63,672 bases of DNA from Dehalococcoidia bacterium (GCA_003599735.1 QZJI01000057.1:1-63672), one strand, 5' to 3'; counted from the first letter of the stretch, positions 2,763-25,798 are shown. Notes: a model not told the origin generated them from the letters alone. Translations and numbers: made by a program.

Positions 2763-2763
2763 C

Positions 2764-4487: not shown

Positions 4488-4489
4488 GC

Positions 4490-7761: not shown

Positions 7762-9905
7762 CCACGCTGCCCGAGCTCCTCTCCGAGCACGGAGAGGCGA
7801 TCACGCGCGCGGTGCTGCGCGCGTACCCGCCCGTCTACACGGCGCGCAACCGCGACGGCTGGGGCTTCGACCTGTCGCGGCTCAAGCGCCGTCCGATGGG
7901 TGCGCAGGGCGACGCGATCCGCGCGACCGCCGTCTCGCTGCGTTCTCACCGCGGCACGAACGTGGTCGGGGAGATGGGCACCGGCAAGACGATGATCGCC
8001 GCTTCGGCGGCGTACATCGCGGGCTTCCGGCGCATCCTCGTCCTCTGTCCGCCGCACCTCACGCGGAAATGGAAGCGTGAGGTGGAGGAGACGGTGCCGC
8101 TGGCGGCAGCGGTGATCGTCAGCACGATCACGGATCTGAACCGGCTGCCGCGCGATACGCGGTGGCCGCTCTTCGTGATCCTGTCACGGGAGCGCGCGAA
8201 GCTCTCCTACCGCTGGACGCCCGCCGTGCGCCGGCGTCCGGACAACGCCGCCGGTCACGCCGTCTACGACGAGCGCGGCGAGCTGGTGCGGCGCAACTGC
8301 TGTCCCGGCTGCTGGCAGACGGTCGTCGATGACGAGGGCGTGCCGCTCGACCTCGACGAGCTGAGCCGGCGGCGACGTGTCTGTGATCGCTGCGGCTCGC
8401 CGCTCTGGCAGGCCGACCACACCGGTCCGGCGCGTGTGCCGCTCGCCGATTACATCAACCGGCGGATGCCGGGCGCGTTCGACCTCCTGGTCACCGACGA
8501 GAGTCACGAATACAAGGCCCGCGGCTCGGCGCAGGGGATCGCGGCGGCGACGCTGGCCGAAGCGTGCGTCCGCACGCTGACGCTCACCGGCACGCTGATG
8601 GGCGGCTACGCCTCGACGCTCTTCCACCTGCTGTGGCGGTTCAGCCCGGACGTTCGGGAGGAATTCGCCTACGGCGAGGAAGGCCGCTGGGTCAGCCGCT
8701 ACGGCATCGTCGAGCGGATCACCCGCCGCGGCGGCGACGACGACGTCATCGAAGACGGTCGTGCGAGCCGACGGCGCGGCTACCGCACGCGCACGGTGGA
8801 GAAGCCCGGCGTCTCACCCGCCGTGCTGTTCCACCTGATCGCGAACACCGTGTTCATCCGCCTCGCGGATGTCGCGACGGACCTCCCGCCGTATCGCGAG
8901 GAGGTCAGGTTGATCGGGATGGCCCGCGGCGACGGCGACGAGCCGTCGCAGGCGGGGGCATACCGGCGGCTCTCGGAAGACCTGCACGCGGCGCTGCTCG
9001 CCGCGCTGGCGGCCGGTTCCCGTCGGCTGCTCGGCGCGTACTTGCAGGCACTGCTGGCCTATCCCGACGCATGCACGCACGGCGAAACCGTCGTGGACCG
9101 CTCGAGCGGAGCGGTGATCGGCTCCGCACCCGCGCTGCCGGACGACCGGCTGTATCCGAAGGAGCAGGCGCTCGTGGAGCTCGCCGTCGAGGAGCGACGG
9201 CAGGGACGGCGCGTCCTGGTCTACATCACGCACACGGAGACGCGCGACCTCACGCCCCGGCTCGAGCGCGTGCTCACCGAGGCGGGGTTGCGCGTCGCGG
9301 TGCTGAAGGCGAACACCGTCGATCCCGACCGACGCGAGGAGTGGGTGACGAAGCGCGTCCGCGCAGGCGTCGACGTGCTGCTCGTCCATCCCCGACTGGT
9401 GCAGACCGGCCTCGACCTGATCGACTTCCCGACGATCGTCTGGCACGAGGTCGAATACTCGGTCTACACGATGCGACAGGCGAGCCGGCGTTCGTGGCGC
9501 ATCGGCCAGAAGCGTCCGGTGCGCGTGGTCTACTTCGCATATCGCGCCACGCTGCAAGCACAGGCGCTGTCACTCGTGGCGCGCAAGCTCCAGGCATCGC
9601 TGCTCGTCGAAGGCGAGATTGGTGATGCCGGCCTCGCGGCTTACGGCGCCGACGCGGACGACCTCACGCTGGAACTCGCCCGGTCGCTTGCGGACGGCGG
9701 CGACGTCAACGAGGAGTCGCTCGAAGCGCTCTTCGCACAGGCCCGGCTTGCCGCAGATGGCGCGCAGGAGGCCCTCGACGCTCGAGATTTCGCACTCGAA
9801 GCAACACCGACTGCGACCAGCGCGGCTATCCGCGCCGACGAGGAGCGCGTGCTTGTCCTCGCCGGCGTCGTCGACGATGACGGCACACAGATGCGCCTGC
9901 TCTGA
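7758..9905 (+). CDS. SNF2/DEAD-family helicase with inserted zinc ribbon
   Basis: Walker A GEMGTGKT, DExH LLVTDESHEY and SNF2 motif VI QASRRSWRIGQKRPV. A CPGC..CDRC insertion is present. Start overlaps the MTase stop. Confidence 0.85.
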   Translation: MTTLPELLSEHGEAITRAVLRAYPPVYTARNRDGWGFDLSRLKRRPMGAQGDAIRATAVSLRSHRGTNVVGEMGTGKTMIAASAAYIAGFRRILVLCPPHLTRKWKREVEETVPLAAAVIVSTITDLNRLPRDTRWPLFVILSRERAKLSYRWTPAVRRRPDNAAGHAVYDERGELVRRNCCPGCWQTVVDDEGVPLDLDELSRRRRVCDRCGSPLWQADHTGPARVPLADYINRRMPGAFDLLVTDESHEYKARGSAQGIAAATLAEACVRTLTLTGTLMGGYASTLFHLLWRFSPDVREEFAYGEEGRWVSRYGIVERITRRGGDDDVIEDGRASRRRGYRTRTVEKPGVSPAVLFHLIANTVFIRLADVATDLPPYREEVRLIGMARGDGDEPSQAGAYRRLSEDLHAALLAALAAGSRRLLGAYLQALLAYPDACTHGETVVDRSSGAVIGSAPALPDDRLYPKEQALVELAVEERRQGRRVLVYITHTETRDLTPRLERVLTEAGLRVAVLKANTVDPDRREEWVTKRVRAGVDVLLVHPRLVQTGLDLIDFPTIVWHEVEYSVYTMRQASRRSWRIGQKRPVRVVYFAYRATLQAQALSLVARKLQASLLVEGEIGDAGLAAYGADADDLTLELARSLADGGDVNEESLEALFAQARLAADGAQEALDARDFALEATPTATSAAIRADEERVLVLAGVVDDDGTQMRLL

Positions 9906-9992
9906 GCGCAGCACACGCGGGGCCGGGCGGCTCAAACAAATGGCCGTCCGGCATCCCGCGATCTCAAAGGACAACGAAATCAGGAGAATCAC

Positions 9993-11960
9993 ATGACTAC
10001 CACGACTGAACCGATCGCCGCGAGCGGCATCGAAGTCTGGATCCCACTGAACAAGCTAAAGAAGTCACCGAGCAACGCCCGCCATACGCCGCACGGCGAG
10101 GCGGCGATCGAGGCGCTGGCCGCGAGCATCCACGCGAAGGGGATGCTCCAGAACCTCATCGTGCAGCCGGAATGCGATCGGGCCGGGAAGGAGACCGGCG
10201 CCTACTTCGTGACCGCAGGTGAAGGCCGACGGCTCGCCCAGTTGCTGCGCGCGAAGCGCCGCCAGATCCCGAAGACCGAGCCGATTCGCTGCATTGTCGA
10301 CACGACGAACGATCCGCTGGAGGTGAGCCTCGACGAGAACGTCACGCGCACGGAGATGCACCCGGCCGATCAGTTCGAGGCGTTCCGGCGGTTGAGCGAG
10401 GAGCGCGGTTGGGGCGCCGAGGAGATCGCCTCCCGGTTCGGTGTCACGCCGAACACCGTGCGACAGCGGATGCGCCTCGCAGCGGTCAGTCCGCGATTGA
10501 TGCAGCTCTACCGGGAAGAAGAGCTGACACTCGACCAGTTGATGGCGTTCGCCATCGGCGATGACCACGCGCGGCAGGAACAGATCTACGACAGCCTCGG
10601 GTGGAACGACGAACCGCGGACGATCCGCTACCGGATGATGGAGACGCACGTCCCGCCTCGCGATCCGCGCGCGATCTTCGTCGGAATGGCCGCATACACC
10701 GAGGCGGGTGGCACGGTCGTCCGCGACCTCTTCACGGAGGAGGACGGCGGCTACTTCGAGGATGCGACACTGCTAGATCGCCTCGCCCTGGAGAAGCTCA
10801 ACAGCGTCGTCGCGGAGTTGCGGGGCGAGGGTTGGAAGTGGGCGGAAGTCTCGCTCGAATTCCCGTACGACCACGGTCTCCGGCGCGTGTACCCGCAGGC
10901 GGTGAAGCTTCCCGCGCTAACCCAGAAGCGCCTCGACGGATTCCGAGCCGAGTACGCCCGGCTCGTCGAGGAGTACGAGGGTGACGACGAGATGCCGGAC
11001 GAGATGGTCGGCCGCCTCGAAGAGCTAGAGGCCGAGATCGAGCGGCTGTCCGAGAGCGAACGCGTGTATCTCGCGGGCACGATGGCTGGAGCGGGGGTGT
11101 TCGTGTCACTCGGTCGGGACGGTGCCCCGCGCATCGAGCGCGGGTTCGTACGGCGTGAGGACGAACCGGTCTCGCAAGGCGAGACGTCCTTCGACGCGAA
11201 GATCGAGGACGATGGCGCCGAGGGGGAACGGGCGTCCGCCGACGTCGAACTCGACCGCGACGAAGGGGGCAGCGGGAAGCCGCTGTCGGATGCGCTCGTC
11301 CGCGATCTGACGGCGCACCGGACACTCGGGCTGCGCCTCGCCCTCAGCGAGCGCCCGGAGGTCGCATTGATTGCAGTGACCCACGCACTGGCTGCGCAAG
11401 GGTTCTTCCACTACTACGACGAGGTGACCTGCCTGGAGATACGCTCCAGCAGTTCCTCGCTGGGCGCCTATGCCGGCGGAATCAATGACACGGCGGCTGC
11501 GCAGGCGTTCGTCGAGCGACACGAGGCGTGGGCGAGCCAATTGCCGTCCGAGGAGGCTCAGCTGTGGGACTTCATCTCGGCGCTCGACATCGACCGTCGC
11601 ATGGGGCTGCTCGCACACTGCGCAGCGCTCACAGTATTCGCCGTTCAGCAGCGCTGGGACACGAAGCGGCGAGCGGTCGGAACCGCGAACCGCTTAGCGG
11701 AGGCCCTGGGGCTCGACATGGCCGCGCACTGGGCGCCCACGGTCACGGCTTACCTCGGCCGCGTAACGAAGGCGCAGATCGCGGATGCCGTGCGTGAGGG
11801 CGTCTCTGAGCAGGACGCGGAAGGTATCTCCAGTAAGAAGAAGCAACTGATGGCGGAGGCCGCCGAGCAACTGCTAGCCAACACCGGCTGGCTGCCCTCC
11901 CCGCTCCGCACGCCGAAGGTCAGCAACGCGGACACGGCGTCTCATCCCGACGCCGCTTGA
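9993..11960 (+). CDS. Large ParB-like (ParB/Srx N-terminal domain) protein
   Basis: KKSPSNARHTPH and the GEGRRLA ParB box, with an HTH-like IASRFGVTPNTVRQRMRLA. RBS AGGAG. 655 aa, as in plasmid/ICE ParB-like nucleases. Confidence 0.8.
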   Translation: MTTTTEPIAASGIEVWIPLNKLKKSPSNARHTPHGEAAIEALAASIHAKGMLQNLIVQPECDRAGKETGAYFVTAGEGRRLAQLLRAKRRQIPKTEPIRCIVDTTNDPLEVSLDENVTRTEMHPADQFEAFRRLSEERGWGAEEIASRFGVTPNTVRQRMRLAAVSPRLMQLYREEELTLDQLMAFAIGDDHARQEQIYDSLGWNDEPRTIRYRMMETHVPPRDPRAIFVGMAAYTEAGGTVVRDLFTEEDGGYFEDATLLDRLALEKLNSVVAELRGEGWKWAEVSLEFPYDHGLRRVYPQAVKLPALTQKRLDGFRAEYARLVEEYEGDDEMPDEMVGRLEELEAEIERLSESERVYLAGTMAGAGVFVSLGRDGAPRIERGFVRREDEPVSQGETSFDAKIEDDGAEGERASADVELDRDEGGSGKPLSDALVRDLTAHRTLGLRLALSERPEVALIAVTHALAAQGFFHYYDEVTCLEIRSSSSSLGAYAGGINDTAAAQAFVERHEAWASQLPSEEAQLWDFISALDIDRRMGLLAHCAALTVFAVQQRWDTKRRAVGTANRLAEALGLDMAAHWAPTVTAYLGRVTKAQIADAVREGVSEQDAEGISSKKKQLMAEAAEQLLANTGWLPSPLRTPKVSNADTASHPDAA

Positions 11961-12254: not shown

Positions 12255-13361
12255 ATGGATAAGGCACTCAGGCGCCGCCTCGTTCGATCTCTGAACGCTG
12301 CCCGCGGCGATCATTCGTCGAAGGACTCGATCCGACTGGCCCACGGGCCGCAACGACGTCAGCGCCAATTGGCAGAGCGCAATTGGCTTGATGCTCATCG
12401 GGCCAAAGTCCTGCCCGGCTTCGCGGAGGCATGCGAGGTCGATCCGGCCACGATGAAACCCGTCTTAGTTCCGGTCACAGCCGGGACACCGGACGCAGAC
12501 CTGTTCCGCGCCGCGACGCTGCTGTGGTCGGTACCCGTTTCTCGAGGGTACGGCCGACGAATGCGCTATCTGGTCCGCGATGATGCCAACGGCAAGATCA
12601 TTGGACTGTTTGCACTTGGCGATCCTGTCTTCAATCTCCGAGGCCGGGACGAGTGGATCGGCTGGGATGTGGCGGCGCGCCGCGAACGAATCTCTAGCGT
12701 GATGGATCTGTACATCTGTGGGGCGGTTCCGCCATACAACACGCTCCTGGGCAGCAAGCTAGTCGCGTCCCTGGCGACCTCGCAAGAAGTGGTCGACCGA
12801 TTCCGCGAGCGCTACGCGGGCCGTCGGGGGATCATCTCGGGGATCGTCAAACCGGCAGAATTGCTCGTGATCACGACGACCTCCGCGCTCGGCAAGTCGT
12901 CGCTCTACAACCGACTGAAGCTTCCGACCGATCCAGTCACTGAGTTCCACGAGATCGGATACACGCAGGGCTGGGGACATTTTTCCGTCGGCGATCGCCT
13001 CTTCATGGAGCTCCGCGATCATCTGTTGTCGGAAGATCATCGATATGCCAACGGACATCAATTCGGGACGGGGCCGAACTGGCGTCTGCGAACGATCCGA
13101 GCGGCGATGAAGTCGCTCGGCGTCAACGACGCCTTCCTGAATCACGGGATTCAGCGACAGATCTTCGCGACCGAGCTGTCCGATACGTCGCGCAAACAGC
13201 TGCGCGAAGGGATCAAACGCCGGAGAGTTCGGAGACCCTCCGCGGACGAGATTGCCGAGGCCGGCCTCGCCCGCTGGGTGCGGCCGCGGTACGCCCGTCT
13301 CGGCATACCTGCGTGGTCGCGGGCGGATCTCGAACGGTTGTTGGACGGTGACGCGGACTAG
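12255..13361 (+). CDS. DUF4338-like protein (DruA-like)
   Basis: Blocks RGYGRRMRYLVRD..NGKIIGLFALGDPVFNLRGRDEWIGW, YICGAVPPYNTLLGSKLVA, TTTSALGKSSLYNRL and GYTQGWGHFS match my recollection of Pfam DUF4338. Not verifiable without an HMM search. Confidence 0.55.
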   Translation: MDKALRRRLVRSLNAARGDHSSKDSIRLAHGPQRRQRQLAERNWLDAHRAKVLPGFAEACEVDPATMKPVLVPVTAGTPDADLFRAATLLWSVPVSRGYGRRMRYLVRDDANGKIIGLFALGDPVFNLRGRDEWIGWDVAARRERISSVMDLYICGAVPPYNTLLGSKLVASLATSQEVVDRFRERYAGRRGIISGIVKPAELLVITTTSALGKSSLYNRLKLPTDPVTEFHEIGYTQGWGHFSVGDRLFMELRDHLLSEDHRYANGHQFGTGPNWRLRTIRAAMKSLGVNDAFLNHGIQRQIFATELSDTSRKQLREGIKRRRVRRPSADEIAEAGLARWVRPRYARLGIPAWSRADLERLLDGDAD

Positions 13362-13418
13362 CGCTTGCTCGCCGCCGGCTATGTCGCAAGTCGGTGTGCG
13401 GCCGGCGCGCCGTTCAGT

Positions 13419-14672
13419 TTATTGTCGCGCCCCTCCGGAGGGGGCGCGGTTTGTGAGGGGAAACACCTCGGAGTAGTCGGATGTCGCGAGGAATATGAGA
13501 TCGTGTTCCTCGTCGCGCTCAATGCGGACGTTTAGCACTCGCATGAGCTCACCTACGCCGTAGGCCGCGGTTTCTTCGTGCGATCGGATGACCACAGAAC
13601 GTTGTTGCTCTATTCCGAAACCGCGCTGAACGGTTGCTAGCCAGGTACGCGGTCCATTTCGGGCGTCCACCAGCAGTTCCACGTCTATCGCTCGATCAGC
13701 CGAGGCAACCGACCCCGACGCAACTGAGTCCGCCAAATGGTCCCAGTAAGGATTGCAAAGCTGACGCACTTGGCAGTGGCTACAGAACGTGGCCTCCGGT
13801 CGTGCAGTCGGTGGGCGTTCGATCATTGAGCCCAGCGCAGCGGCGCTTCGTGTGCGGAGGTCGTCTTCCAGGCGGTCAAGCTCGTCGCGATCCGGAGCGG
13901 GGAAGACTTCTTCTCGAGTCGGATACGCGACGACGAGCTCCGTTGCGATTCGTCCGGATGGATTGACAGCGGCATCTCGCGCCCAAAGCAGCGCATAGAT
14001 CCGCAGTTGGGCCTCGTGGTCCTCCTGCGGGACACCGGTCTTGTAGTCAGTAATCCGGCAGTTGTCTGCGTCCAGCGATATCAAGTCAGCCTTGCCGATC
14101 CACCCCATCGACGGGACACGCAGTTCGACTTCCGCGTGGGATCCGATCCCTATGGCACGAGTCCTTTCCTCGCTAGAGCGCGGTGTCGCCCCCGACGTTC
14201 CGGCGACGACATCGCTGCGCGCGATCGTCGTTTGAACCCCTCGACGCAGTTCGGGCATCTCGAGTGTGAGCGCGCGGCGGATCGCGTCCATGCGGCGCGC
14301 AACGCGCGGATTTGTGTGGAGCGAGGACAGTACCGCTTCCGAAACAGATCGCAGGACTACCGAGTACCCGCCGAGATCCTTGAGGACAATGACGCGGCAT
14401 GGGCCATCGTGTCCGTCGCAGTGGTGAGTGGCCATCGCGCGGACAATGACTTCAAGCGCTCCATGCAACACCTCGCCCTTGAGGGTCGCGAGGAAGGGAT
14501 TATCTGGGTAGCCTCTTCGGCTCCAGATATCCGGGAAGGTCGCATGTCGAAGCATCCATCGTCGTGGACAATGCTCTACTTCCGCGAGAGTCGAATAGCT
14601 GAGTGCATTTGGCGGGGACGGCCAAGTACCGTTGCTTCGCTCTACGTCGGTCAGGAAGGCGTCGTTCGCCAT
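13419..14672 (-). CDS. Cas4/RecB-like PD-(D/E)xK nuclease with a Cys cluster
   Basis: GKADLISLD..ITDYKTG..QLRIYALL (D / D-Y-K / QxxxY motifs), plus N-terminal CPRRW and C-terminal CSHCQVRQLC (a four-Cys arrangement as in Cas4/AddB). ATG lies 1 nt after the helicase stop. Confidence 0.75.
   Translation of the reverse strand: MANDAFLTDVERSNGTWPSPPNALSYSTLAEVEHCPRRWMLRHATFPDIWSRRGYPDNPFLATLKGEVLHGALEVIVRAMATHHCDGHDGPCRVIVLKDLGGYSVVLRSVSEAVLSSLHTNPRVARRMDAIRRALTLEMPELRRGVQTTIARSDVVAGTSGATPRSSEERTRAIGIGSHAEVELRVPSMGWIGKADLISLDADNCRITDYKTGVPQEDHEAQLRIYALLWARDAAVNPSGRIATELVVAYPTREEVFPAPDRDELDRLEDDLRTRSAAALGSMIERPPTARPEATFCSHCQVRQLCNPYWDHLADSVASGSVASADRAIDVELLVDARNGPRTWLATVQRGFGIEQQRSVVIRSHEETAAYGVGELMRVLNVRIERDEEHDLIFLATSDYSEVFPLTNRAPSGGARQ
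13426..13448. terminator. GC-rich hairpin between convergent genes
   Basis: CGCGCCCCTCC GG AGGGGGCGCG (one bulge), followed by GTTTGTG on the + strand. Overlaps the last codons of the minus-strand nuclease gene. Confidence 0.4.
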
Positions 14673-14673
14673 C

Positions 14674-17600
14674 TCAACTAACGCTTCGCACGACGAAGCG
14701 ACTGGCCTCCGGAAGGTTCCGCTCGATGATCAGTTGGTCAACCAAGACGACAGCGACGGAATCTCCGAATTCCATCGCTTCGACCAAAGCCGGGTCGATA
14801 GGCGTCCCGGGTGTCAGCGGTCCGTGCAATGCGATGATGAAACTGCCGATTGACGAAGTCGCGAGAATCGGAGCAATGAAGGATCCGATCCCAGGAATAT
14901 CTAAAGCCGCGTCACGCTCAAATCGCACACCGTGGTCTTCCTGCCGAACCAGATCAGTGAATAGACGGTCAGCGGCCGCTTCCGCCCGACCGGAATCGAT
15001 CTGCGGCGCCTCGTCGAACAGAACGTAGCGCAGCAGGGTCGAGCCGAGGTGGCGGTCCAGCAAGTCATGCTCGAAGCGGTTCCTGAAGCTCCTCAAACAT
15101 CGATAGCAGGACCGGTCGCAGTTCGAGGGGCAGGTTTCCAACAGTTTCAGCGCTTGCTCGAAGAGCCCTCGACCTAGGTCGCGCGCGCGCCGAGTAAACC
15201 CGGCGCCGCCTGAGAGCGTGTCATACAGGTATATCTCCGCTTCGAGTCCCTCGTGACCAAGCTGAGTCAAGGCCGGCCTGTACTCAGCTTGGAGTTCGCC
15301 GGGCTCGATCTCCAGCATGGTGGTCGCCGCGATGGTCAGCGCCTCGGAGACCGTACGGAGGGAAACATCCGTGGCGAGATATCCGGGACGGAGCGTGAGG
15401 GGCTGCTCGACCTGGATCGAGACGAGTAGGACATCCGAAATGAAGTCCGTTCCGAGAACCAGGCCCTGGGTACTCGCCCCTCCGGGGCATTCTGGCTCAC
15501 GCATATCCGGATATGGCTTCGCGTGCGGAGCCGACGTCCGGCCCGTTGGGATCGCAGTTGGCTCGATGAGCCCGCAGCGGGTGCAGTAGCTGTAGCCGTC
15601 TTGCCTCGGACCAGTGTTGGTCACCAGGAGGTCGGTTCTTACGTAGTGCTCCCTGAGCCTCGCGGTAAGCGGTGACCAACTGGAGTCCTCAGAGGGCTCC
15701 CCTGCGATCAGTTTCGCTCGCGTCGCGTAGCTGCGAGCCGGCGAGTCGTCCGGTGACGTTCCCTCGTCGACGTTGACCGGATGTGCGAATCCGGGCGGCC
15801 TCATCCAGTTGCGAGCCGGGCCGAACGTACCTGCGTTGCCGCACGCCGGGCAAACGCGGACCTCGCCGCGCTCAGCGGTGCTGTACGGTTCGGTCCGCGC
15901 GAAGTGACATATGGAACATTCGAAATACAGGCGACGGTCGTGCCACTCGTCGTAGAGCTCGGATCGCATTGGCGAGTAAAGAGCTCCAGCTGTCCACAAC
16001 TTGCCGTCGACCCAAACTTCCTTACCGGGGGCATATTGGGTTAAGGCGACGGGCAAGCCCTGACTCGGCGAGTATTGAAATACCGGCCGGAAGCGCGTCG
16101 ATTCGTTGCGGTTGAAGACATAGAAGCTGACGACATCCGTCGGGAACGCGTATCGCGGTAGTACGCCCCGATACAGCAAGCGATCAAGCAGGTTGCGGGC
16201 AGCACGACTCGCGTCGGTCTTCTCCTCGCCCGGCTCCGACTGCACCTCCACACTCTCGGCGTCGTCATCCGCGGCGTTCCCGGTGGCTCCATCCGAAGTA
16301 TCGGCGTCGCCGCTATCCCGCGACGCGTCCCCGACGTCAATCGCCTTGTCGATCGCAGCGAGCGTCGCATCGACGATCCCAGCCAACAGCCCGCTCCGAT
16401 CGGTCCCCGCTAACTCGTGTGGCAGCCAATCGTCCGCTTCCGCGGCGAGCATCGATTGATTGGTTCGAAGCCAATCCTCGAAGTCGCGACGGTTGAGTGC
16501 GGATGTGTCACCACGGAAGTCAGGGACTGTGCCCAGCACTTCAAACAACTGGCGCTGGTCCTCGGGGGGGATCTCTGGCAGCCGCTCGTAGTGGTAGCGC
16601 TGGAGGAGGAAGGCCGTCAGGTGACGTCGAGCGATCTCAGGATTGTCGAGCGTGAGGAGTGGATCACTGACCGGCCCCCGCACCATCATCTCCGGCTCAC
16701 TGAAGTAATGCTCGTCGTGGCTGTCTGCACTGCCAAAGGCGATGACCGTGGCCACCGCATTTCCACGCCGGCCAGCGCGCCCTGCACGTTGCTGATAGTT
16801 GGAACGGGCAGGAGGCATGTTTCGCAACGCCACTCCCGACAAGACACCGATATCGATCCCGACCTCCATAGTGGTTGTCGAGGACAACACGTCGATCGCT
16901 GTTCGAGACTGGCCCGGGATTGTTGGACCGAGGTCGACATCCTGGAACAGCAGCTCGTGCTCTTCAGACTTCGAGAAGACTTCGTCAGCCTGGGCAGTGT
17001 TCAGTTGCGCCGTGTGCTCCGCCGCGATGATTGCCATCGGTGATTCGGGAGGCTCGCGGAGAGCGCGAACCGAACTGCCCCGGTAGTATGCCTTTCGGGC
17101 CGCGAAGACCGGATCAGAGTCCGGATCGACAATTTTGACCCGGTCGCGCGCGCAGTTAATGCACCGCTGCACGCCAGGAAATGGCCTCTGAGTTGTACGG
17201 CACGTTTGGCAGTATGCCCATTCACCATCTGTCTCCAGGGTGACGTGTCTGGCGCGCATCCGATACTTCCCACCCGCAACGCCCTCGCAAAATATCTCGA
17301 GTAGGACGGGGAGCCACCCTCGCTCAAATTCGCGCCGCGAGGCAGGTGTTGGCAGCCACCGTCTGATGGCTTCGAACTTACCGGTATGCGAGCGGACTCC
17401 ATCCTTCGCTTGCCACCATCCATCCGGCATGTCTGCGAACCAGATGCCCGGGACGGTCCATTGATTCAACCAAGCGCGCACGAGTGCGAGTTTCTCAGCG
17501 TCGTCTGACGCCACTCCTCCGATTGTCGGAACGCGCTCTAGTACCTGCTTGCGGAGCCCTTCCCGCTCGGCAAGTGAGGCGAGAGCGAGCGATTGAAGGC

Positions 17601-20244
17601 CGTAATAGCGATCGGTGATGGTTCTCACGATCCCACGAAGGAGCGACTGCGGCGGAGCTTCGGTGCGTAGGCCCATTACGAGTTCCAGCAGCACGACCGG
17701 ATCGGACAACTCGCCCTGACGAATGACTCGGTTCACTTCGCGCTGCGCGTCGAGCGATTCTCCGGCGCGCAGCTCAGGTCGGAGACGCACACGCAGCGAC
17801 CGCGCTGCTATTAGGACTCCGAGGAACAGGTCCTCGAGGCTGAGCGAACTCTTCACAGCGTCAACGCGCCGAAGATCCTTCATTCCTGCCAAGATCAGAG
17901 GACGGAGCACATCCTGCATCGAGTAGGTCTGCAGATTCGGCGCCAGCCGTGCCGCCGTTTGTCGCGAGTCGGAGAAGGTCAACACCTTTCGACCACGGAG
18001 AGGCGCGAAGTCCGAGTATGCCTGGCTCGCCGGCTGCACTTGGAGCTGTCGAGCGACTAGCGCCTGGAACGGCTGATCGCCCTTCGTTTGATGATCCTGG
18101 ACCGAAGATCGGCCGTATCCGGCGAACTGCTTGCAAACTCCGCACGGCCTGAATTCACCCCCCGATCCGTCGATCGACGGGCCCCCTTCATCGTCGTCTT
18201 CCGCGGAAGCGGCGTCTCCGCTGCTCCGGTCGCGCTTGAGAAAGACCTGCCGCGTCCGGTCGCCAGGCATCCAGGGATTCAGGCGGCCGGTCACAAGATC
18301 GAGTTGGAATGGCTCTACGAGTTCTGGAATCGGGTCTTCTAGGCAGAGGTCGAGTGGCAGGAGTTCGGTCACGAGTCCGCCAGCAGTGAGAAACCGCTCG
18401 CCCGGCTCTGACCAGAGGTAGTTCGGGTGGGTAAGGTCATCGGTGTACGCGCGGGCGTAGGCTGCGCCGCAACTGCGGCACGTATACAACTCAAAGACCC
18501 GCGCACCGCATGCACATGTGTCCTGAGGTTGGGCGAAAAGCTGCCCCACTGGGCGTGGTGCTCCCGGACGCACTGCAGAGCACGCTGGATCGATGCACGC
18601 CCAGAGACCGGGAAGTCCACGGAAGAAGGAGTGAACACGACAGGGAAGCAGGCTCGGTTCGCTCGCGTCGCGTTTCGCAGCGCTCCCAAGCGAGATCAGC
18701 GCAGTCAACGCGCGATCGGCCACTTCCTTCTCGGCCGTCGGGAAAATTAGCGCTCCCAGGCTGTCGAGGCGCTGCGCCGCCTGCATGGTGAGGTTCACCA
18801 ACAGGCTCATCGGTGGGTACTGCGCGAGTGCTTCGAACAGCGTCTGAGGGAGAGAGGATGTGGTGGACGTCGCCCGGAACCTTAAGAACGGCTCGATCAG
18901 AGCACGTTTGAGCTCATCGTCATCGGCCTCGGCGAACCCATCGAGATCGAGAGCTGCCAGGACACGGGCATCGGCTTCGGAACCATGCCCTTCGCTCGGT
19001 CGGAGAGCGAGATCACCGGTGATGGTCTCAAAATCGTGCTCGCGTTTGCCCGACAACTGAGCTGCGAAGGCATTCGCCAATGTTGGGTCGCCGAAACTCG
19101 CGCTCGTGCAGATCACTTGCAGGCGGTCTGCGGGAATGCCAAGTCGCGCGCGAAGACGACGAAGGAGGAGGCCAACCTCGGCGCCTGCGGCACCTCGGTA
19201 AAGGTGTGCCTCATCGATCACGAGGAGCAGCCGCTCATCGGGATTCTCGGCCAGCCACCGGCGTGTCAGGTCGAAGATTGGACGTTCGAGGGGACGCATG
19301 AGCATGTACTCGAGCATCGAGTAGTTCGTCACCAACACGTCGGGCGGCGCGGCCAGCACTTCGTGTCGAGTTAGAAGTTCTGGGTCCTCTGGAAGCATGA
19401 CGGCACGTACAAAGTCACCGTTCGAGCTCTGCCATCGCGTGCCTGACTTCCCGTACCAACGTTCCAGATCGGGCTTGGCGGGCCATTTGCCCCGCGCCTG
19501 CAGCGTGTCCATCAAAGTTGCTGCGGCATCCCGCGCCTCAGATGGGTCGCCAGACGCCTTCTCGAGTAGTTCGACGTAAAACTGTCCAAGGGGACGGAGC
19601 TTGGCTTGGTCCTTCGTCGAGGTGCGAACACCGGGATAGAGCGTTCGACTCGTGTACCGCGCGAAGCGAGCCGGACGTCCGGACCATCGATTGAAGGCAG
19701 CCCGCACTCCCGAATCTCCGAGCATGAGACGGAGCCGTCCGAGTTGGTCGTTAACGAGCGCGTTCATTGGATACAGGACTATCGCTCGCAACGACGGAAC
19801 GGCGAACGACTTCGGGCGGTCCGCCGCCTCGATGGCGAGCTTCCCCAAGATCGGTAGCAAGAACGACTCGGTCTTCCCGGAGCCGGTGCCGGTTGTGACC
19901 ACAAGACTTCGCTTGTCGTTCAAGCTGACGGTGAGAGCCTTCCCCTGGTGGTCATAGGGAGGGTCGTGAAGAAGCGCCGAACCGTCGTCCCGATGCGCCA
20001 TGCTGTGAAGCAATTCCGCCGCCGGCGTCGGGAGACCGAGATCGCTGAAGGGCGTACCAGACTGATATCTCGGCGTGGACTCGATGTACGGAACTTGGAA
20101 GATGACGCCAGGTTGGTCGAGCAATGCGCCGCGATCGCGAACGACCTCCTCACTTCCAATGTGGTAGGCCGCCTCGATGTAGTCGCGTAGCGCATTGCGG
20201 ATCTCGTCAATCGTCCCCGAGATTGTTGCCGGACGGGTCGTCAT
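14674..20244 (-). CDS. Giant DEAD/DEAH helicase with C-terminal DUF1998/MZB domain (COG1205, DruE-like), 1856 aa
   Basis: Motif I TGTGSGKTESFLLPIL, motif II VIDEAHLYRG, motif [12 protein letters not shown]. Several CxxC zinc ribbons. C-terminal CPSNCDRSCYRCLRSFRNRFEH. Start set at ATG 20244 (MTTRPATISG), 5 nt after the upstream stop. Confidence 0.85.
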   Translation of the reverse strand: MTTRPATISGTIDEIRNALRDYIEAAYHIGSEEVVRDRGALLDQPGVIFQVPYIESTPRYQSGTPFSDLGLPTPAAELLHSMAHRDDGSALLHDPPYDHQGKALTVSLNDKRSLVVTTGTGSGKTESFLLPILGKLAIEAADRPKSFAVPSLRAIVLYPMNALVNDQLGRLRLMLGDSGVRAAFNRWSGRPARFARYTSRTLYPGVRTSTKDQAKLRPLGQFYVELLEKASGDPSEARDAAATLMDTLQARGKWPAKPDLERWYGKSGTRWQSSNGDFVRAVMLPEDPELLTRHEVLAAPPDVLVTNYSMLEYMLMRPLERPIFDLTRRWLAENPDERLLLVIDEAHLYRGAAGAEVGLLLRRLRARLGIPADRLQVICTSASFGDPTLANAFAAQLSGKREHDFETITGDLALRPSEGHGSEADARVLAALDLDGFAEADDDELKRALIEPFLRFRATSTTSSLPQTLFEALAQYPPMSLLVNLTMQAAQRLDSLGALIFPTAEKEVADRALTALISLGSAAKRDASEPSLLPCRVHSFFRGLPGLWACIDPACSAVRPGAPRPVGQLFAQPQDTCACGARVFELYTCRSCGAAYARAYTDDLTHPNYLWSEPGERFLTAGGLVTELLPLDLCLEDPIPELVEPFQLDLVTGRLNPWMPGDRTRQVFLKRDRSSGDAASAEDDDEGGPSIDGSGGEFRPCGVCKQFAGYGRSSVQDHQTKGDQPFQALVARQLQVQPASQAYSDFAPLRGRKVLTFSDSRQTAARLAPNLQTYSMQDVLRPLILAGMKDLRRVDAVKSSLSLEDLFLGVLIAARSLRVRLRPELRAGESLDAQREVNRVIRQGELSDPVVLLELVMGLRTEAPPQSLLRGIVRTITDRYYGLQSLALASLAEREGLRKQVLERVPTIGGVASDDAEKLALVRAWLNQWTVPGIWFADMPDGWWQAKDGVRSHTGKFEAIRRWLPTPASRREFERGWLPVLLEIFCEGVAGGKYRMRARHVTLETDGEWAYCQTCRTTQRPFPGVQRCINCARDRVKIVDPDSDPVFAARKAYYRGSSVRALREPPESPMAIIAAEHTAQLNTAQADEVFSKSEEHELLFQDVDLGPTIPGQSRTAIDVLSSTTTMEVGIDIGVLSGVALRNMPPARSNYQQRAGRAGRRGNAVATVIAFGSADSHDEHYFSEPEMMVRGPVSDPLLTLDNPEIARRHLTAFLLQRYHYERLPEIPPEDQRQLFEVLGTVPDFRGDTSALNRRDFEDWLRTNQSMLAAEADDWLPHELAGTDRSGLLAGIVDATLAAIDKAIDVGDASRDSGDADTSDGATGNAADDDAESVEVQSEPGEEKTDASRAARNLLDRLLYRGVLPRYAFPTDVVSFYVFNRNESTRFRPVFQYSPSQGLPVALTQYAPGKEVWVDGKLWTAGALYSPMRSELYDEWHDRRLYFECSICHFARTEPYSTAERGEVRVCPACGNAGTFGPARNWMRPPGFAHPVNVDEGTSPDDSPARSYATRAKLIAGEPSEDSSWSPLTARLREHYVRTDLLVTNTGPRQDGYSYCTRCGLIEPTAIPTGRTSAPHAKPYPDMREPECPGGASTQGLVLGTDFISDVLLVSIQVEQPLTLRPGYLATDVSLRTVSEALTIAATTMLEIEPGELQAEYRPALTQLGHEGLEAEIYLYDTLSGGAGFTRRARDLGRGLFEQALKLLETCPSNCDRSCYRCLRSFRNRFEHDLLDRHLGSTLLRYVLFDEAPQIDSGRAEAAADRLFTDLVRQEDHGVRFERDAALDIPGIGSFIAPILATSSIGSFIIALHGPLTPGTPIDPALVEAMEFGDSVAVVLVDQLIIERNLPEASRFVVRSVS

Positions 20245-20249
20245 CGTTC

Positions 20250-21338
20250 CTAAACCTCCACGTCGATGTCTAGCCAGAGCATCTTCGTGACGAAGGCGAG
20301 CTCCTCTTCGACCTCTCCCGGCATCAAGGCGTACGACACAAGCGCACCTCGAGCGGCGATTGGTAAACCGCGCCTGTCCCAGCGGCGTTGAAGCCAACTT
20401 GGCGGCGGTGCGAATAGCGAGAGTACATTCACGCTCGCGTCGCGTGTTACTCGAACGCGCTGCGGATGTCCGCGTACCGCGTCGATGGCCGCCTGTAAAT
20501 GCCAAGCTTCATCGGCACCTCTTGCGAGCGATCCATCCAGCGGAAAATCGACGAAGCGTTGTGGTTGCCCCCCTACCACCTCGACATAGCACCAGAGATC
20601 ACTCCCGTAGGCCTGAGTACGCCGAGCGACGTACCTGCCCGTGTCGCGGGCGGAGGGTTCTCGCCAGCGACCCTTGTAATAGTTCGTGGGTGCCGCTGCA
20701 TCGAGTAGCCGGAGTCCGGGGATCTCCCCTGACGGTCCGGCAGCCTCGAGGTGAAGATCCTTCTCTCGCAGTACGTCGATCGCTGGCGCCATCAACGGGC
20801 ACCTGAGCCAGACCTCTTGACTAACCTCGTGTAGCCCGTAGTCGTCGAGAAGCGTCGCAATGTCGGTCCCCGAGGCCGCGTTGATGATGCGGAGGTGGTG
20901 TTCATGCTCGATGAGTACCGCAAGGGATTCGCCCACGAGGGAGGCTCCTTCCGGTCGCACCCCAAGTAGAAGAAATGCCCCTCCTGACCTCCGAACAAAC
21001 GCGGGCGGGCCGAGGTAGAGCATCCGCCGCCGACGCAGCGTCGCGTTGTCAACCTCTGAGACCTCCAGCAGGTCGCCGGACGCAACTAAGGACTCAAGGA
21101 TTCCCGCGAGGGTCTCGCGCAAGGACGGGCCATCGCCGGCGAGCCCCTCCAGCGGTCTCGCGGTCAAGGCCACGAGCCCGGCAGGAGTGATCGGACAACG
21201 GAAGGACGCCGTTCGGCGAAGTGCTGCAGCGAGCGCCTCGTGGGCTGTGAGGTCCATCGCCGTAGCGTCGAGACCAAGCGCGTCGGTGCAAGCAGCCATT
21301 ACCTCGGCGGGGGTCAGAATGTCTACTCCCATGACCAC
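20250..21338 (-). CDS. Hypothetical protein (362 aa), coupled to the DruE-like helicase
   Basis: Long ORF overlapping the upstream gene by 16 nt and ending 5 nt before the helicase ATG. No domain recognised. Confidence 0.6.
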   Translation of the reverse strand: MVMGVDILTPAEVMAACTDALGLDATAMDLTAHEALAAALRRTASFRCPITPAGLVALTARPLEGLAGDGPSLRETLAGILESLVASGDLLEVSEVDNATLRRRRMLYLGPPAFVRRSGGAFLLLGVRPEGASLVGESLAVLIEHEHHLRIINAASGTDIATLLDDYGLHEVSQEVWLRCPLMAPAIDVLREKDLHLEAAGPSGEIPGLRLLDAAAPTNYYKGRWREPSARDTGRYVARRTQAYGSDLWCYVEVVGGQPQRFVDFPLDGSLARGADEAWHLQAAIDAVRGHPQRVRVTRDASVNVLSLFAPPPSWLQRRWDRRGLPIAARGALVSYALMPGEVEEELAFVTKMLWLDIDVEV

Positions 21339-24300
21339 CCCCGATAGGAGAGCAGCGAGTCGGGGGCGGCGCTCGCGTAGTGGGTCGCGAGAACGAGGTA
21401 GCGCGCGGCCCGCAGGATGAAGGGCACTTCCAGGGCAATCGTCAATGCCTGTTCGATGTCATCTGCCCCTGCCCACGTGTCGAGCGTCCCTGGGGAACTC
21501 GCGAGGCGCAGCACGAATTCTGCGAGCCAACGGCGGTCTACCGGTTCGGAATGAAGCACCGCGCGGCTGAGCTCCGCGAACTCGCGCACGCGCTCCGGGG
21601 TCGACAACGTCGGCGAACTGTTCACAAGTTGCTTCAGATCCAATCGGAAGCCACTGTGCTCTCCCGGACGCGCGAGCGCGGCGTCCAGTTGCACGCGCTC
21701 GATGGACTGGTCCTCCTCGACGCGCGCCTCGGCCTGTTCCCACCAACCGCCTCCTATCACCCCCGCGATCGCTTGAGGGAAGGCGCGTACAACACGGTCT
21801 CGTCCGGCCGCTGCGAATGGATTGCCAGGAACCTCTGCCTGAGCCCATGCCGCCGTGGTGCTGATCCAAGCCCGAAGGGCTTCGAGGGTACGACTCCGGG
21901 TCAGGAAACGCGGGGGCACGCTCATCCGCTGTAGGTCGACAAGGCCTCGGATGAGTGGAGGCATGATCGACGTCGCCACGTACCCGGCACTGCGTGCGAC
22001 GTAGAGTCCGCCGGCACCGGCGCGGAAAAGCCCATCTTCGCCGACGTCGACGACGGTAGTCGCGTCGGGCTGGTCGAAATCGAGGTGCTCAACGCGGACC
22101 ACCTGATCACCCACGTTATCGTGGAGTCGCAGGAAGTAGCCGTTGCGATCCTCACCTGAACCCCATCGGAGAGGAACGAATGCGCGCTCACACTGAAGCG
22201 ACACAGCCCCCAACTCGGCGTGCGTGATCTCGATCACACCACGATTCGCGCTGTCGTACCCCTGATAGACGTCCTTTGCCTGGCGAAAGTCGCGATCGAA
22301 GATCTCCCGCCAGACGTGCGCGGCGATCGGAAGCGTGAGGGGGCCCAACTGCTTGTGGGCGATCCGTTCCGATCCCCGCTCGAGCGATACCCCTACCTCC
22401 ACTGCGACACCTGACGGGCCGAGGACATCGATGGTGGCGCGGCCCTCCCACAAGTCTTCAAGAGTCGGGGACGCCGGCCCAGCGAGAATGAGGAGAGCTT
22501 CGCGGTAGGTCCCACTTGCCGCCCGGACTCGTGGCTCTCGAACGACGATTTCGAGGTAACCCTCAACGGGCGGCGCAGTCGCGTCATCGAGCAGCAGGGC
22601 AACGCGCACCATGTGCGAGCCCACATCGAGTCCCGTGAAGCGAACGTAGGCGGATTCGCTCCGCCCGCTCGGCCATCCAACGCGCACCGGCTCCCCGCCG
22701 TCGAGGATGACGCCGCAATGGCGGACTGCGAGCGTCGACGTAATGCCCAGAATGGGCTCGTCACCGACGACCCATTCGCCGCTCCCTTCTCCGTCCCACG
22801 AAGCCGGTTCCAGTCCCGCCGGTCTCACGTCCACACCCGTCGTGACCCCGATGTTTAGGCGGGCAATCTCAAGGACATCTGCCGAAGAGATTTCGGCCGG
22901 CACCGACATCGTGTACGCGTACACCCCCGCGCAGTCGGCTGATGTGGGAGCGATCCAAGCTGGCAGCTGATCGAACTGGCGCTCCGTGATGAGGATGTAT
23001 TCGTGTCCCGGCCGAACCGCCTTCGTTCGAACCTCGGTAGCGTTTGTCGGACCAGCGAGCCTGAAGACCCAACAAGGACCGGCCGTAAATCGGCATTCGT
23101 CGGCCAGAAGTTGGTTTAGGTGGGCCTCACATTTCTCGAGTTGCAACACCGGGACGTCCGCTCCAGGCCACCTATCCAGTTCGACGCGGAGACCGACATA
23201 AAGGAGGTAGCTGGGCGGCAGCGGCGGTCGCCTTGTCATGCCGGCGACCATGCAGCGAGAGGTGGAGAGTGCAACCTCAAGCTCAGGGAAGCGCGCAATG
23301 AGAGGAGCGAAGTCCGGGGGTTCGACGAGAAGCTGCCACCCTACGGCGTTTCGCTGAAGCCCAAACTTCGCTGGAGCAACCGGCCGAGCTTCGCTGCCGC
23401 GCTCGTCGGGCCGACCGACGGATGGCGCGCTCCGGACGGCATGGGTCGCGAGCCCCCGGAGCTGAACCTTCGCCGCCGAAGTCCTCGCGTCCGTGAGCCA
23501 TCGTCGAGCCTCGCGCTCTGCCGATAGGTCGGAAACGATGCGTCGGAGCGTCGAGGCCAGCAAGAGAGGCGTTTCGCCAGCATCGACTAGGAGGGCGGAC
23601 GCGACCTGGCCGAGCAACGCGGTGTTCTGACAGAAGACGCGAAAGCGGGCTGAGGTCCTCACCGCCCGAGCCGCGAGTCTCACGCCGAGCTCGTTGGGGT
23701 TCGCGAGGAGGTTCGCAGTTAGGTGATGGCGGTACTCATACAACAACCGGGCGAGATGAAGTTGGAGATCGGTTGGTAGGACCGCGTGGGTGATAGGCCA
23801 GCAGATGTTGGTGAACTGCCCCGCCCATGCACCCTGCGGCTGAGCTCCTCCGAATGCGGATGCGAACTCTTTGAATCGATCCCGGAGCCAGGTGCGGTCG
23901 CCGTACCGCGTCCAGCCAGGAGTGGTCGCTTCGAAGGTCTGCCAGTATTCCTCGCCCTCATAGTGGTAGCCGACTTCCGCGGCGTAGACGAGGAGCGCCA
24001 GTGCCCATTTCCGTGATGGCGGTCCCTTCTGCAGGGCGGCGCGCACGTTCGAGCGGACTGTCTCGAGTTCGCTGGGATCGAGGCCGTGCTCGAGGATGAA
24101 TACCGGCCCTGTCCCCACCTGAATTGCGCGCACCGCGCGAAGCTCGCCGAAATGCGTGCTGAGCCTGTCGCTCAGGGCTTCGAGGATTCCAGCAGGCCCA
24201 ACGGGGACATGAACAGGCGCGCGAGGGGACTCCCCCAAGGTGCGTTCCGGTTCCTGGGACGCGGAAGGTCCATTCATCGCGACTACCAAACGTGGATCGG

Positions 24301-24376
24301 CACGCGTCAGAGTCGGCTGACGACCGCTGAGCCGCTGTTGGCGCCTCGCGACGCCATCCCCCAGCTCTGAGCCCAT
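21323..24376 (-). CDS. Large hypothetical protein (1017 aa), first gene of the DruE-like operon
   Basis: Uninterrupted 3-kb ORF. A perfect TATAAT lies 40 nt upstream. No catalytic motif recognised. An alternative start is MNGPS, 33 codons in. Confidence 0.6.
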   Translation of the reverse strand: MGSELGDGVARRQQRLSGRQPTLTRADPRLVVAMNGPSASQEPERTLGESPRAPVHVPVGPAGILEALSDRLSTHFGELRAVRAIQVGTGPVFILEHGLDPSELETVRSNVRAALQKGPPSRKWALALLVYAAEVGYHYEGEEYWQTFEATTPGWTRYGDRTWLRDRFKEFASAFGGAQPQGAWAGQFTNICWPITHAVLPTDLQLHLARLLYEYRHHLTANLLANPNELGVRLAARAVRTSARFRVFCQNTALLGQVASALLVDAGETPLLLASTLRRIVSDLSAEREARRWLTDARTSAAKVQLRGLATHAVRSAPSVGRPDERGSEARPVAPAKFGLQRNAVGWQLLVEPPDFAPLIARFPELEVALSTSRCMVAGMTRRPPLPPSYLLYVGLRVELDRWPGADVPVLQLEKCEAHLNQLLADECRFTAGPCWVFRLAGPTNATEVRTKAVRPGHEYILITERQFDQLPAWIAPTSADCAGVYAYTMSVPAEISSADVLEIARLNIGVTTGVDVRPAGLEPASWDGEGSGEWVVGDEPILGITSTLAVRHCGVILDGGEPVRVGWPSGRSESAYVRFTGLDVGSHMVRVALLLDDATAPPVEGYLEIVVREPRVRAASGTYREALLILAGPASPTLEDLWEGRATIDVLGPSGVAVEVGVSLERGSERIAHKQLGPLTLPIAAHVWREIFDRDFRQAKDVYQGYDSANRGVIEITHAELGAVSLQCERAFVPLRWGSGEDRNGYFLRLHDNVGDQVVRVEHLDFDQPDATTVVDVGEDGLFRAGAGGLYVARSAGYVATSIMPPLIRGLVDLQRMSVPPRFLTRSRTLEALRAWISTTAAWAQAEVPGNPFAAAGRDRVVRAFPQAIAGVIGGGWWEQAEARVEEDQSIERVQLDAALARPGEHSGFRLDLKQLVNSSPTLSTPERVREFAELSRAVLHSEPVDRRWLAEFVLRLASSPGTLDTWAGADDIEQALTIALEVPFILRAARYLVLATHYASAAPDSLLSYRGWSWE

Positions 24377-24416
24377 CCCACGTCCGTGTTTTCACGTCAG
24401 GGGGCAACCCGGCCGC

Positions 24417-24422
24417 ATTATA
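24417..24422 (-). promoter_or_regulatory. Candidate -10 box (TATAAT) for the 1017-aa/DruE-like operon
   Basis: + strand ATTATA equals minus-strand TATAAT, about 40 nt upstream of ATG 24376. Rare in this GC-rich context. The -35 is weak. Confidence 0.3.
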
Positions 24423-24796: not shown

Positions 24797-25798
24797 TCAC
24801 AGCAGGCGCCGGGACTCCATCCGCTCGACGTTCCCCTTCTCGAACATCAAGTCACTTACCTCTGAGAACGGTAGCGCTCCTCGTCGGAAGCGATCGAGGG
24901 CGTCTTCAACCTGGGCCGGTGTCAGTACGCCATCGGCATACGCTTCGAGGGGAAGACCGAGCACGGCAGCCGCGTCTCCAAGTACTTGCACAAGCGCTTC
25001 CTCCGCTTGTGCCCTCAGTGATGCCCGGAAATGCAGGAACCTGAGCTCTCGCTCGAAGTGCGCGTAATCGTTCAGCACCCGGCGGTCGCCCATGAAGATC
25101 TCACGGGCGGTCCAGCCGATCGTATGTGTTGCCTGCAGAGCCAAAAGGTCGCGGAGACGAATGTGCTCCTGCACATCGAACGTCGGCGCATCCGCATCCA
25201 TCCCCATCCACTTCGCATCCACCCAATCAGGTGTCAGCTTCTCGGGGATCGCGCCCAACTCACGGAACATCTCGTCAAGCTCGTCACCCGAGTAACGTGA
25301 TGGAAGTTCGACATGTATGAGCCGCGCGGCGGAGAGGTCAACGTCCGTCACACCGCCATAGTCAATGGAGTAGTGAGGCGGAATGTCCTCCGCTCTGGGC
25401 AATACCTGTCGCTTCCTGCCAGATACGGGATCCTCCGCGAGCCCGTGCACGATGGCGACCTCGAACAATCGCTCACGTGTCATGCCTCCGCGTCGTGGCT
25501 CAGGTGCCCGTCCCGCGTCAACCGCGAGCTCAATCCAAACTTCGTGGTCAACGAACAGTCGGCGTGCCACATCTCGGACGAAGTCGTCTGCTCCGCTGTC
25601 TTGGTAGGAGAGACTCAGCGACTCCTCAAGCGCCCATTGTTGTTCGGCTGGCTCTACCACCAGCCGATATGCATCGTTTCTGCTCGTCCGATACGGAACA
25701 ACCCCGTTCGAGACATCTTGAAAGAGCATTTGCGCGTTCAGGCTCTGGGGATAATGTCGCCCACCGGTCGGGACCCACCGAGAGATGCGTTCAGGCAT
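24797..25798 (-). CDS. Hypothetical protein (333 aa)
   Basis: Track ORF 24797..25984 trimmed to ATG 25798 (MPERISRW), which overlaps the upstream gene stop (25791-25793) by 8 nt. No domain recognised. Confidence 0.5.
   Translation of the reverse strand: MPERISRWVPTGGRHYPQSLNAQMLFQDVSNGVVPYRTSRNDAYRLVVEPAEQQWALEESLSLSYQDSGADDFVRDVARRLFVDHEVWIELAVDAGRAPEPRRGGMTRERLFEVAIVHGLAEDPVSGRKRQVLPRAEDIPPHYSIDYGGVTDVDLSAARLIHVELPSRYSGDELDEMFRELGAIPEKLTPDWVDAKWMGMDADAPTFDVQEHIRLRDLLALQATHTIGWTAREIFMGDRRVLNDYAHFERELRFLHFRASLRAQAEEALVQVLGDAAAVLGLPLEAYADGVLTPAQVEDALDRFRRGALPFSEVSDLMFEKGNVERMESRRLL

Follow-up and report, generated by a model that had tools for sequence, protein, structure and literature searches.

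We analysed a 63,672-nt stretch of DNA from a Dehalococcoidia bacterium (GCA_003599735.1 QZJI01000057.1:1-63672; hereafter the window), which carries at positions 12,255-24,422 a five-gene locus that probably belongs to a conserved lineage related to type I of the Druantia defence systems. Four minus-strand genes encode, in the order of transcription, a large protein that we name X960, the type I component DruD, the helicase DruE and a Cas4-like nuclease, and they face a fifth gene, druA (Table 1). X960 is the product of the 1017-aa open reading frame (ORF), and the members of its family have ~960 aa. All five ORFs lie where an initial annotation of this DNA had placed them, and its attribution of the region to a Druantia-related locus with a DruE helicase and a DUF4338 DruA is borne out by Pfam and PADLOC matches.

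Table 1. Genes and features of the Druantia-related locus, in coordinates of the window.
Feature	Position	Strand	Remark
X960 (1017-aa ORF; likely 984 aa)	21323..24376	-	in the place of DruB + DruC
druD (362-aa ORF; likely 360 aa)	20250..21338	-	overlaps X960 stop; PADLOC DruD1
druE, 1856 aa, YprA/MrfA-like superfamily 2 (SF2) helicase, MZB (DUF1998), type I clade	14674..20244	-	PADLOC DruE1
Cas4/AddB-like PD-(D/E)xK nuclease, iron-sulfur (Fe-S) cysteine set, 417 aa	13419..14672	-	Pfam PDDEXK_1
druA, DUF4338, short form, 368 aa	12255..13361	+	convergent with the four-gene operon
GC-rich hairpin + T-rich tail, possible terminator	13392..13412	+	consensus scan; 57-nt druA/nuclease gap

ORFs of 1-5.6 kb whose matches to curated hidden Markov models (HMMs) reach E-values of 1e-70 to 0 lie well outside what chance would give, and all ORFs of the locus are full length relative to their homologues. 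As read from the sequence, a single nucleotide separates the druE stop codon (TGA, 14674-14676) from the nuclease start codon (ATG, 14672), and 5 nt separate the stop of the 362-aa ORF (TAG, 20250-20252) from the druE start (ATG 20244), just upstream of which lies a GGAGG. The stop of the X960 ORF (TAG, 21323-21325) falls inside the druD ORF. Since druD homologues begin at ATG 21332 (MGVDILTP…), DruD most likely has 360 aa and the X960/druD overlap is 10 nt; the initial annotation was right on both gaps and on the existence of the overlap, which is probably shorter than the 16 nt it gave. Similarly, X960 likely starts at M34 (24277) and has 984 aa, because alignment with its homologues begins only near residue 65 and the nearest homologue has 984 aa. 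The longest helicase ORF starts at TTG 20505; ATG 20244 is favoured on account of the full-length match to the DruE1 model. The hairpin between druA and the nuclease gene is suggestive by its position alone, as such sites are no commoner in the region than in shuffled sequence, and a promoter scan returned no sigma-70-like site, which says little in a high-GC organism.

Type I Druantia, as laid out by Doron and colleagues in 2018, reportedly consists of DruA-DruB-DruC-DruD-DruE. For comparison we assembled a canonical type I set of 18 loci, comprising those of Ralstonia solanacearum pUW163a and Pseudomonas putida pKF715A and 16 metagenome loci; co-oriented DruA-DruB-DruC-DruD is found in 18 of 18. 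Three of the five genes in the window are type I markers, which brings the locus nearer to type I than had been supposed. Its DruA matches both Pfam PF14236 (DUF4338; E = 4.5e-70) and the PADLOC model DruA1 (PDLC00002; E = 2.5e-133), and is 47-50% identical to the DruA of canonical and X960-bearing (variant) loci alike. DUF4338 has been described as GNAT-like, that is, of acetyltransferase fold (PMC10853773); a PDB profile search with DruA gave no meaningful match, so this assignment is taken from the literature only.

The 362-aa protein, which the initial annotation could place in no family, is DruD. It matches the PADLOC model DruD1 (PDLC00010) over its full length at E = 2.5e-113, whereas canonical DruD matches PDLC00009 instead. 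In its AlphaFold2 model (91.6 in pLDDT, the score predicted for the local distance difference test) the N-terminal ~110 residues alone resemble winged-helix domains, and a PDB profile search with DruD found no meaningful match. DruE is matched over residues 5-1853 by the PADLOC model DruE1 (PDLC00013) with E = 0 and 1941 bits, as against at most 569 bits on DruE3 models; canonical Ralstonia DruE reaches 2300 bits on PDLC00013. The protein has the Pfam domains DEAD, Helicase_C and MZB, and all four helicase motifs quoted in the initial annotation are present, at residues 118, 342, 1152 and 1705 of 1856 aa. The nearest solved structures are those of type III DruE (9tu7, 9wae) and of YprA/MrfA (6znp). 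With ~34% identity to canonical DruE and ~52% to the DruE of a variant locus, and with the different DruD models, the DruD and DruE of the variant can be assigned by sequence comparison to a subfamily separate from the canonical ones.

The nuclease scores 71.8 bits on Pfam PDDEXK_1 (E = 1.1e-19; cut-off 22) and stays below the Cas4 family cut-offs, with 31.8 bits versus 65 on TIGR00372 and 20.2 versus 22.7 bits on Pfam Cas_Cas4. Matches to PADLOC DruK models are weak (~1e-10) and cover the nuclease core only, and the ORFs of the window that were scanned include no cas genes. When the window protein is aligned with 38 homologues, D196, D209-x-K211, Q222…Y226 and the cysteines C35 and C297-x2-C300-x5-C306 are conserved in 37-39 of the 39 sequences. 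Judged by this conservation, the nuclease keeps an intact Cas4/AddB/RecB-type D…DxK/QxxxY site together with a four-cysteine Fe-S signature.

X960 itself matched no Pfam, PADLOC or NCBIfam model even at E = 10, and a PDB sequence profile search returned nothing meaningful, in agreement with the initial annotation, which had left the 1017-aa protein outside known families. It has at least 275 homologues of ~960 aa, and an exhaustive HMM search collected 1,596 clusters at 50% identity. An AlphaFold2 model built from the X960 alignment (pLDDT 84.4; predicted template-modelling score 0.62) shows a helical N-domain (~28-273), a disordered linker, β-rich sandwich domains (~300-775) and a helical C-domain (~780-970), the β-rich region being predicted as an array of immunoglobulin (Ig)-like β-sandwiches. 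Foldseek searches with this model against PDB and BFVD retrieved generic tandem Ig/FN3/macroglobulin arrays only, with TM-scores of ~0.1. Some of the longer homologues (P0028, P0044, P0048, P0050, P0068 and P0085; 1063-1100 aa) have an extra TPR-repeat region according to precomputed Pfam annotation.

Relatives of the locus were collected with a DruD alignment in a scan of GTDB genomes, one for each species, which yielded 198; the best 80 loci were fetched and mapped by tblastn, and 61 of them had enough flanking DNA to be assessed for DruA and the nuclease. In each of these 80 loci X960 immediately precedes druD, and X960-DruD-DruE is contiguous and co-oriented, so that the layout proves conserved rather than accidental in the synteny comparison that had been proposed for it. 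The same arrangement recurs in 5 of 5 X960-anchored contexts. Neither DruB nor DruC was detected by tblastn (with two DruB query proteins) in the window or the 80 related loci. The linkage is kept across phyla at 34-50% protein identity, in hosts that include Actinomycetota (among them Streptomyces and Nonomuraea), Chloroflexota, Acidobacteriota, Myxococcota, Pseudomonadota (Gammaproteobacteria), Omnitrophota and others.

DruA is present in all 61 assessable loci. Its gene is convergent and downstream in 30 of them and divergent and upstream in 1; in the other 30 it is co-oriented, upstream in 26 and downstream in 4. An inverted druA is one arrangement among several and does not define the system. 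The nuclease gene directly follows druE in 35 of the 61. Its product, which the initial annotation called a Cas4-like nuclease, is across the lineage a frequent accessory and not a universal part. Convergent druA together with the nuclease, the layout of the window, is the commonest class (17/61); druA is of the long form in those 17 loci and of the short form in the window. A Nitrosococcus watsonii plasmid has DruA-X960-DruD-DruE with the nuclease absent.

Several further arrangements were noted among the relatives (numbered L below). A GHKL/HATPase_c_3 ATPase of ~500-620 aa is encoded directly upstream of, and co-oriented with, a long DruA (560-680 aa) in L001, L002, L113, L114, L108 and 35 of L009-L088 (e.g., L012 3308-4657 and L037 18850-20235). 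The ATPase copy in Leisingera matches the PADLOC MzaB model (5e-20), L114 has two GHKL ATPase copies and a sigma-70 gene, and the window has a short DruA and no GHKL ATPase; the ATPase appears to be an optional sixth component associated with long DruA. Streptomyces/Kitasatospora loci are devoid of the Cas4-like nuclease and have a DUF4365 protein and a 389-aa protein encoded between druE and a convergent druA (L054 16968-18700, with equivalents in L067-L069, L073, L075, L080, L081, L085, L087 and L088). We considered this pair as a replacement nuclease and rejected the idea, as PADLOC assigns it to candidate system PDC-M02A/B (1e-80 and 1e-176); in the Streptomyces-type loci one candidate defence system is nested within another.

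Two plasmid loci have DruE1-clade helicases and no X960. L108, on a Leisingera plasmid, reads HATPase - long DruA … DruE (2094 aa) - NERD/UvrD-like protein, and L109, on a Halalkaliarchaeum plasmid, encodes a divergent long DruA followed by proteins of 413 and 608 aa, the latter with a weakly DruD-like stretch, and by DruE. The published A-B-C-D-E scheme does not capture the full variety of the type I clade. The druE match spans ~6.6-7.0 kb in L031 (11110-18132) and L088 (11089-17703) instead of the usual ~5.5 kb, which suggests that the helicase gene has taken up an insertion, either a mobile element or an intein. Insertions of IS21 and IS3 interrupt the copy of the variant on Sinorhizobium medicae pMl2 (L005 9574-17446), where druD is truncated and druE split into DEAD/DEAH and DUF1998 fragments; here the system is seen to decay on a conjugative plasmid.

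Related loci sit in defence-island or mobile-element surroundings. Separate relatives adjoin TIR and HNH genes, an integrase and a PLD-helicase, or a type IV secretion system coupling protein, and the neighbours on the Nitrosococcus plasmid are a dGTPase, toxin-antitoxin genes and a restriction enzyme. At L110 4185-8353 and L111 1477-5645, the closest relative, whose X960 is 70% identical, lies immediately downstream of a type II CBASS operon (anti-phage signalling by means of cyclic oligonucleotides), composed of SMODS, ThiF/E1-like, JAB and SAVED genes.

In the window, co-oriented plus-strand genes at 2572-11960, of ~70% GC, encode a DnaG-like primase, a DUF6094 methyltransferase, an SF2 helicase with weak DpdE/ZorD/DrmD-like matches and a 655-aa ParB-like protein, so that 1-12 kb has the appearance of a plasmid backbone or of that of an integrative conjugative element. 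The GC content is 62.7% in the locus, 69.6% at 1-12 kb and 65.8% beyond 32 kb, where the genes are housekeeping ones. The initial annotation had described low-GC cargo at the end of a mobile element; the mobile-element-type genes and the lower GC content agree with this, while the window yielded neither an integrase nor a tRNA nor an element boundary. Just upstream of the operon, at 24797-29688 on the minus strand, lie three large Pfam-negative ORFs (395, 864 and 382 aa), which could be further cargo genes. The 395- and 864-aa ORFs, the two that the PADLOC scan covered, are also PADLOC-negative, and they overlap by ~190 nt, so that one may be spurious.

We therefore favour, with a probability of roughly three in four, the reading that this intact locus represents a conserved Druantia lineage, allied to type I and absent from the searched catalogues, in which an always DruA-linked core of X960-DruD-DruE has X960 for DruB and DruC and is often joined by a Cas4-like nuclease. 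Of the two options offered initially, a new Druantia subtype or a new system built around a DruE-type motor, the first is thus preferred. The favoured reading includes a mechanism that draws on recent structural work. DruE is described as a 3'->5' helicase triggered by single-stranded DNA (ssDNA) or forks, and type III DruH, in a May 2026 preprint, as an ssDNA-binding protein with a globular N-domain, six Ig-like subdomains and a C-domain (bioRxiv 10.64898/2026.05.12.722862, 10.64898/2026.05.13.724758, 10.64898/2026.05.13.724313); according to another preprint, DruH primes DruE in type III. In gross terms, the predicted layout of X960 matches this published description of the DruH domains.

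DruE, as a 3'->5' helicase of the YprA/MrfA family, would load on exposed single-stranded or forked invader DNA and unwind it. Type I DruE has been reported with an inactivated Vsr-like C-terminal domain in place of an active nuclease (PMC12458937), so the translationally coupled Cas4/AddB-like Fe-S nuclease would supply DNA cutting in trans, degrading the strand that DruE unwinds. X960 may act as a sensor or DNA-holding partner, by analogy of layout with the ssDNA-binding, DruE-priming DruH, and DruD, with its winged-helix-like N-terminus, as an adaptor between X960 and DruE. The separately transcribed, GNAT-like DruA would be a putative regulator or self/non-self marker; type I Druantia has been linked in the literature to a DNA-modification signal. 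The whole system would travel as cargo beside a mobile-element backbone.

Several points weigh against the favoured reading. Homology between X960 and DruH is undetected, with an hhalign probability of 0.2%, and the X960 profile fails to retrieve DruH 9tud_A though this entry is within the PDB sequence set. The DruD fold is uninformative, as Foldseek against PDB gave nothing below E = 0.05, and the presumed lack of an active nuclease in the window DruE goes back to the Pfam scan, in which it has no PLD or other nuclease domain. The nuclease is absent from 26 of the 61 loci and hence cannot be the sole effector; it must be an enhancer or one among several possible effectors rather than part of the core. 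Finally, we infer the defence role of the variant from homology and genomic context.

The first of these points also bears on the alternative that X960 is a true, very diverged homologue of DruH, which would make the system a type I/III hybrid of DruA, DruD, a DruH-like protein and DruE. The gross architecture agrees with the cryo-electron microscopy description (globular N-domain, tandem Ig-like domains, C-domain), the lengths are similar (~960 versus ~1100 aa), the X960 gene lies upstream of druE as druH does, and DruH is itself very diverse, with 13 PADLOC models. However, an identity with DruH is without sequence support from PADLOC, hhalign or the PDB profile search: X960 matched none of the PADLOC DruH models (STY4851/ECs_5259 family) at E = 10, and the hhalign comparison set X960 against a 107-sequence DruH profile, the DruH reference being a protein from a Marinobacter plasmid. 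PF27205 and PF27201, precomputed on DruH homologues, are missing from X960 homologues; the Pfam copy that we scanned was without these two families and left DruH itself unmatched, so a Pfam scan of X960 against DruH is uninformative. Tandem Ig arrays are, moreover, often convergent. We regard homology as possible and consider it the less probable outcome. The initial annotation had named an identity of the 1017-aa protein with DruH as an outcome contrary to its proposal; at the sequence level no such identity is seen, although the predicted layout resembles DruH. The broader proposition, that X960 corresponds to DruH in structure and function, be it through descent with divergence beyond recognition or through convergence, and that the lineage thereby links types I and III, is put forward tentatively and with similar doubt.

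It appears unlikely, and more so than homology to DruH, that the locus is an ordinary type I system in which X960 is a fused, highly diverged DruB-DruC and nothing has been replaced. X960 does lie between druA and druD, for instance in the DruA-X960-DruD-DruE order of the Nitrosococcus plasmid, its ~960 aa are of the same order as DruB and DruC combined (~550 + 625 aa), and DruA, DruD and DruE are common to type I. Yet identity of X960 with DruB or DruC is ruled out at the sequence level: BLASTP detected no similarity to either, the PADLOC DruB and DruC models, which canonical DruB and DruC match at E <=1e-200, gave no match at E = 10, and hhalign probabilities for a 78-sequence X960 alignment against 18-sequence alignments were 0.1% for DruB and 0.3% for DruC. 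Canonical DruC has coiled-coil-type matches to the JetC, LmuB and PbeC models, whereas the X960 model is half β-sandwich and has no long coiled coil. The separate subfamily of the variant DruD and DruE (PDLC00010; ~34% versus 52% DruE identity) likewise argues against a merely diverged ordinary type I.

The last alternative, in which unrelated neighbours have come together, as a degraded Druantia remnant, an independent nuclease and an orphan DUF4338 gene or as a module for DNA repair or mobile-element maintenance, finds some footing in the opposite strand of druA, in the known DNA-repair function of YprA/MrfA helicases and in the adjoining plasmid- or conjugative-element-type genes, and is nevertheless very improbable given the linkage conserved across phyla at 34-50% protein identity, the full-length ORFs and tight junctions, a DruE that scores with the defence-clade DruE1 rather than with stand-alone YprA, and neighbours of the relatives that are typical of defence islands.

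The chief value of the favoured reading, an X960-based lineage related to type I, lies in annotation and in taking apart the workings of type I. Under a five-gene rule for type I, such as that of PADLOC, X960 loci would be called incomplete. The prevalence of the system may be undercounted: at least 198 species-level genomes have the variant, and for X960, its largest protein, with ~1,600 clusters, PADLOC v2, Pfam and NCBIfam offer no model. The variant suggests that DruB and DruC are replaceable and that DruA, DruD and DruE are not. With the nuclease in some loci only, it also provides a testable explanation of how DNA could be destroyed by a DruE with no active nuclease, and X960, with its DruH-like layout, suggests a route by which the structural work on type III could be brought to bear on type I. 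If X960 is indeed the DruH counterpart, both types would share an engine made of DruE and a DruH-like ssDNA sensor, the cutting module would be interchangeable (fused PLD in type III, a Cas4-like nuclease in trans or none here), and DruA and DruD would form a type I-specific additional layer. In one phage panel, type I Druantia gave the broadest protection (10.1101/2024.04.14.589459).

The locus fits none of the Druantia types I-IV, as the initial annotation had stated for types I and III. PADLOC models of type II (DruM, DruF, DruG) and of type IV (DruF, DruL), the latter type defined in PMC8565338, gave no match among the five proteins and the flanking ORFs. The described types are I-IV, and no paper in the searchable full-text literature describes an X960-DruD-DruE gene set; with no X960 model in the three profile collections and the layout absent from that literature, the lineage is apparently undescribed. 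Bell et al. 2025 read Druantia I and II as type IV CoCoNuT, with an inactivated McrB-like protein (CnuB) and an extended coiled coil; their text and supplements do not describe the present layout and speak only of 'unappreciated diversity' in types I and II. X960 and DruD have neither an AAA/McrB nor a coiled-coil match, nor a long coiled coil in their AlphaFold2 models.

With type I the locus shares a DUF4338 DruA (47-49% identical), a DruD-family protein, a DruE1-clade DruE matched over its full length by the single DruE1 model and devoid of a PLD nuclease, and carriage on a mobile element. It differs in having one unrelated ~960-aa protein instead of DruB and DruC, a convergent druA downstream of the nuclease (a position and orientation that vary among relatives), a Cas4-like nuclease often following druE, a GHKL ATPase with long DruA in many relatives, a DruD on PDLC00010 rather than PDLC00009, and a DruE only ~34% identical to the canonical protein. 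Type III (DruH-DruE) likewise has a large accessory gene upstream of druE, a parallel predicted layout of its product and a helicase of the same family. In contrast to type III, X960 has no detectable DruH homology, the window DruE has no counterpart to the two C-terminal PLD domains in Pfam, and the window additionally encodes DruA, DruD and a separate nuclease.

The nuclease resembles Cas4/AddB/RecB Fe-S nucleases in its D…DxK and QxxxY motifs and in one N-terminal and three C-terminal cysteines (C-x2-C-x5-C), and departs from Cas4 in falling below the family cut-offs, in its 417 aa with extra N- and C-terminal regions and in its coupling to DruE. Although the helicase belongs to the DruE/YprA family and not to HamB, and although DruK matches only the nuclease core, the locus follows the same logic as Hachiman HamAB and the Druantia-associated DruK of PADLOC, in which a large SF2 helicase is paired with a separate PD-(D/E)xK nuclease.

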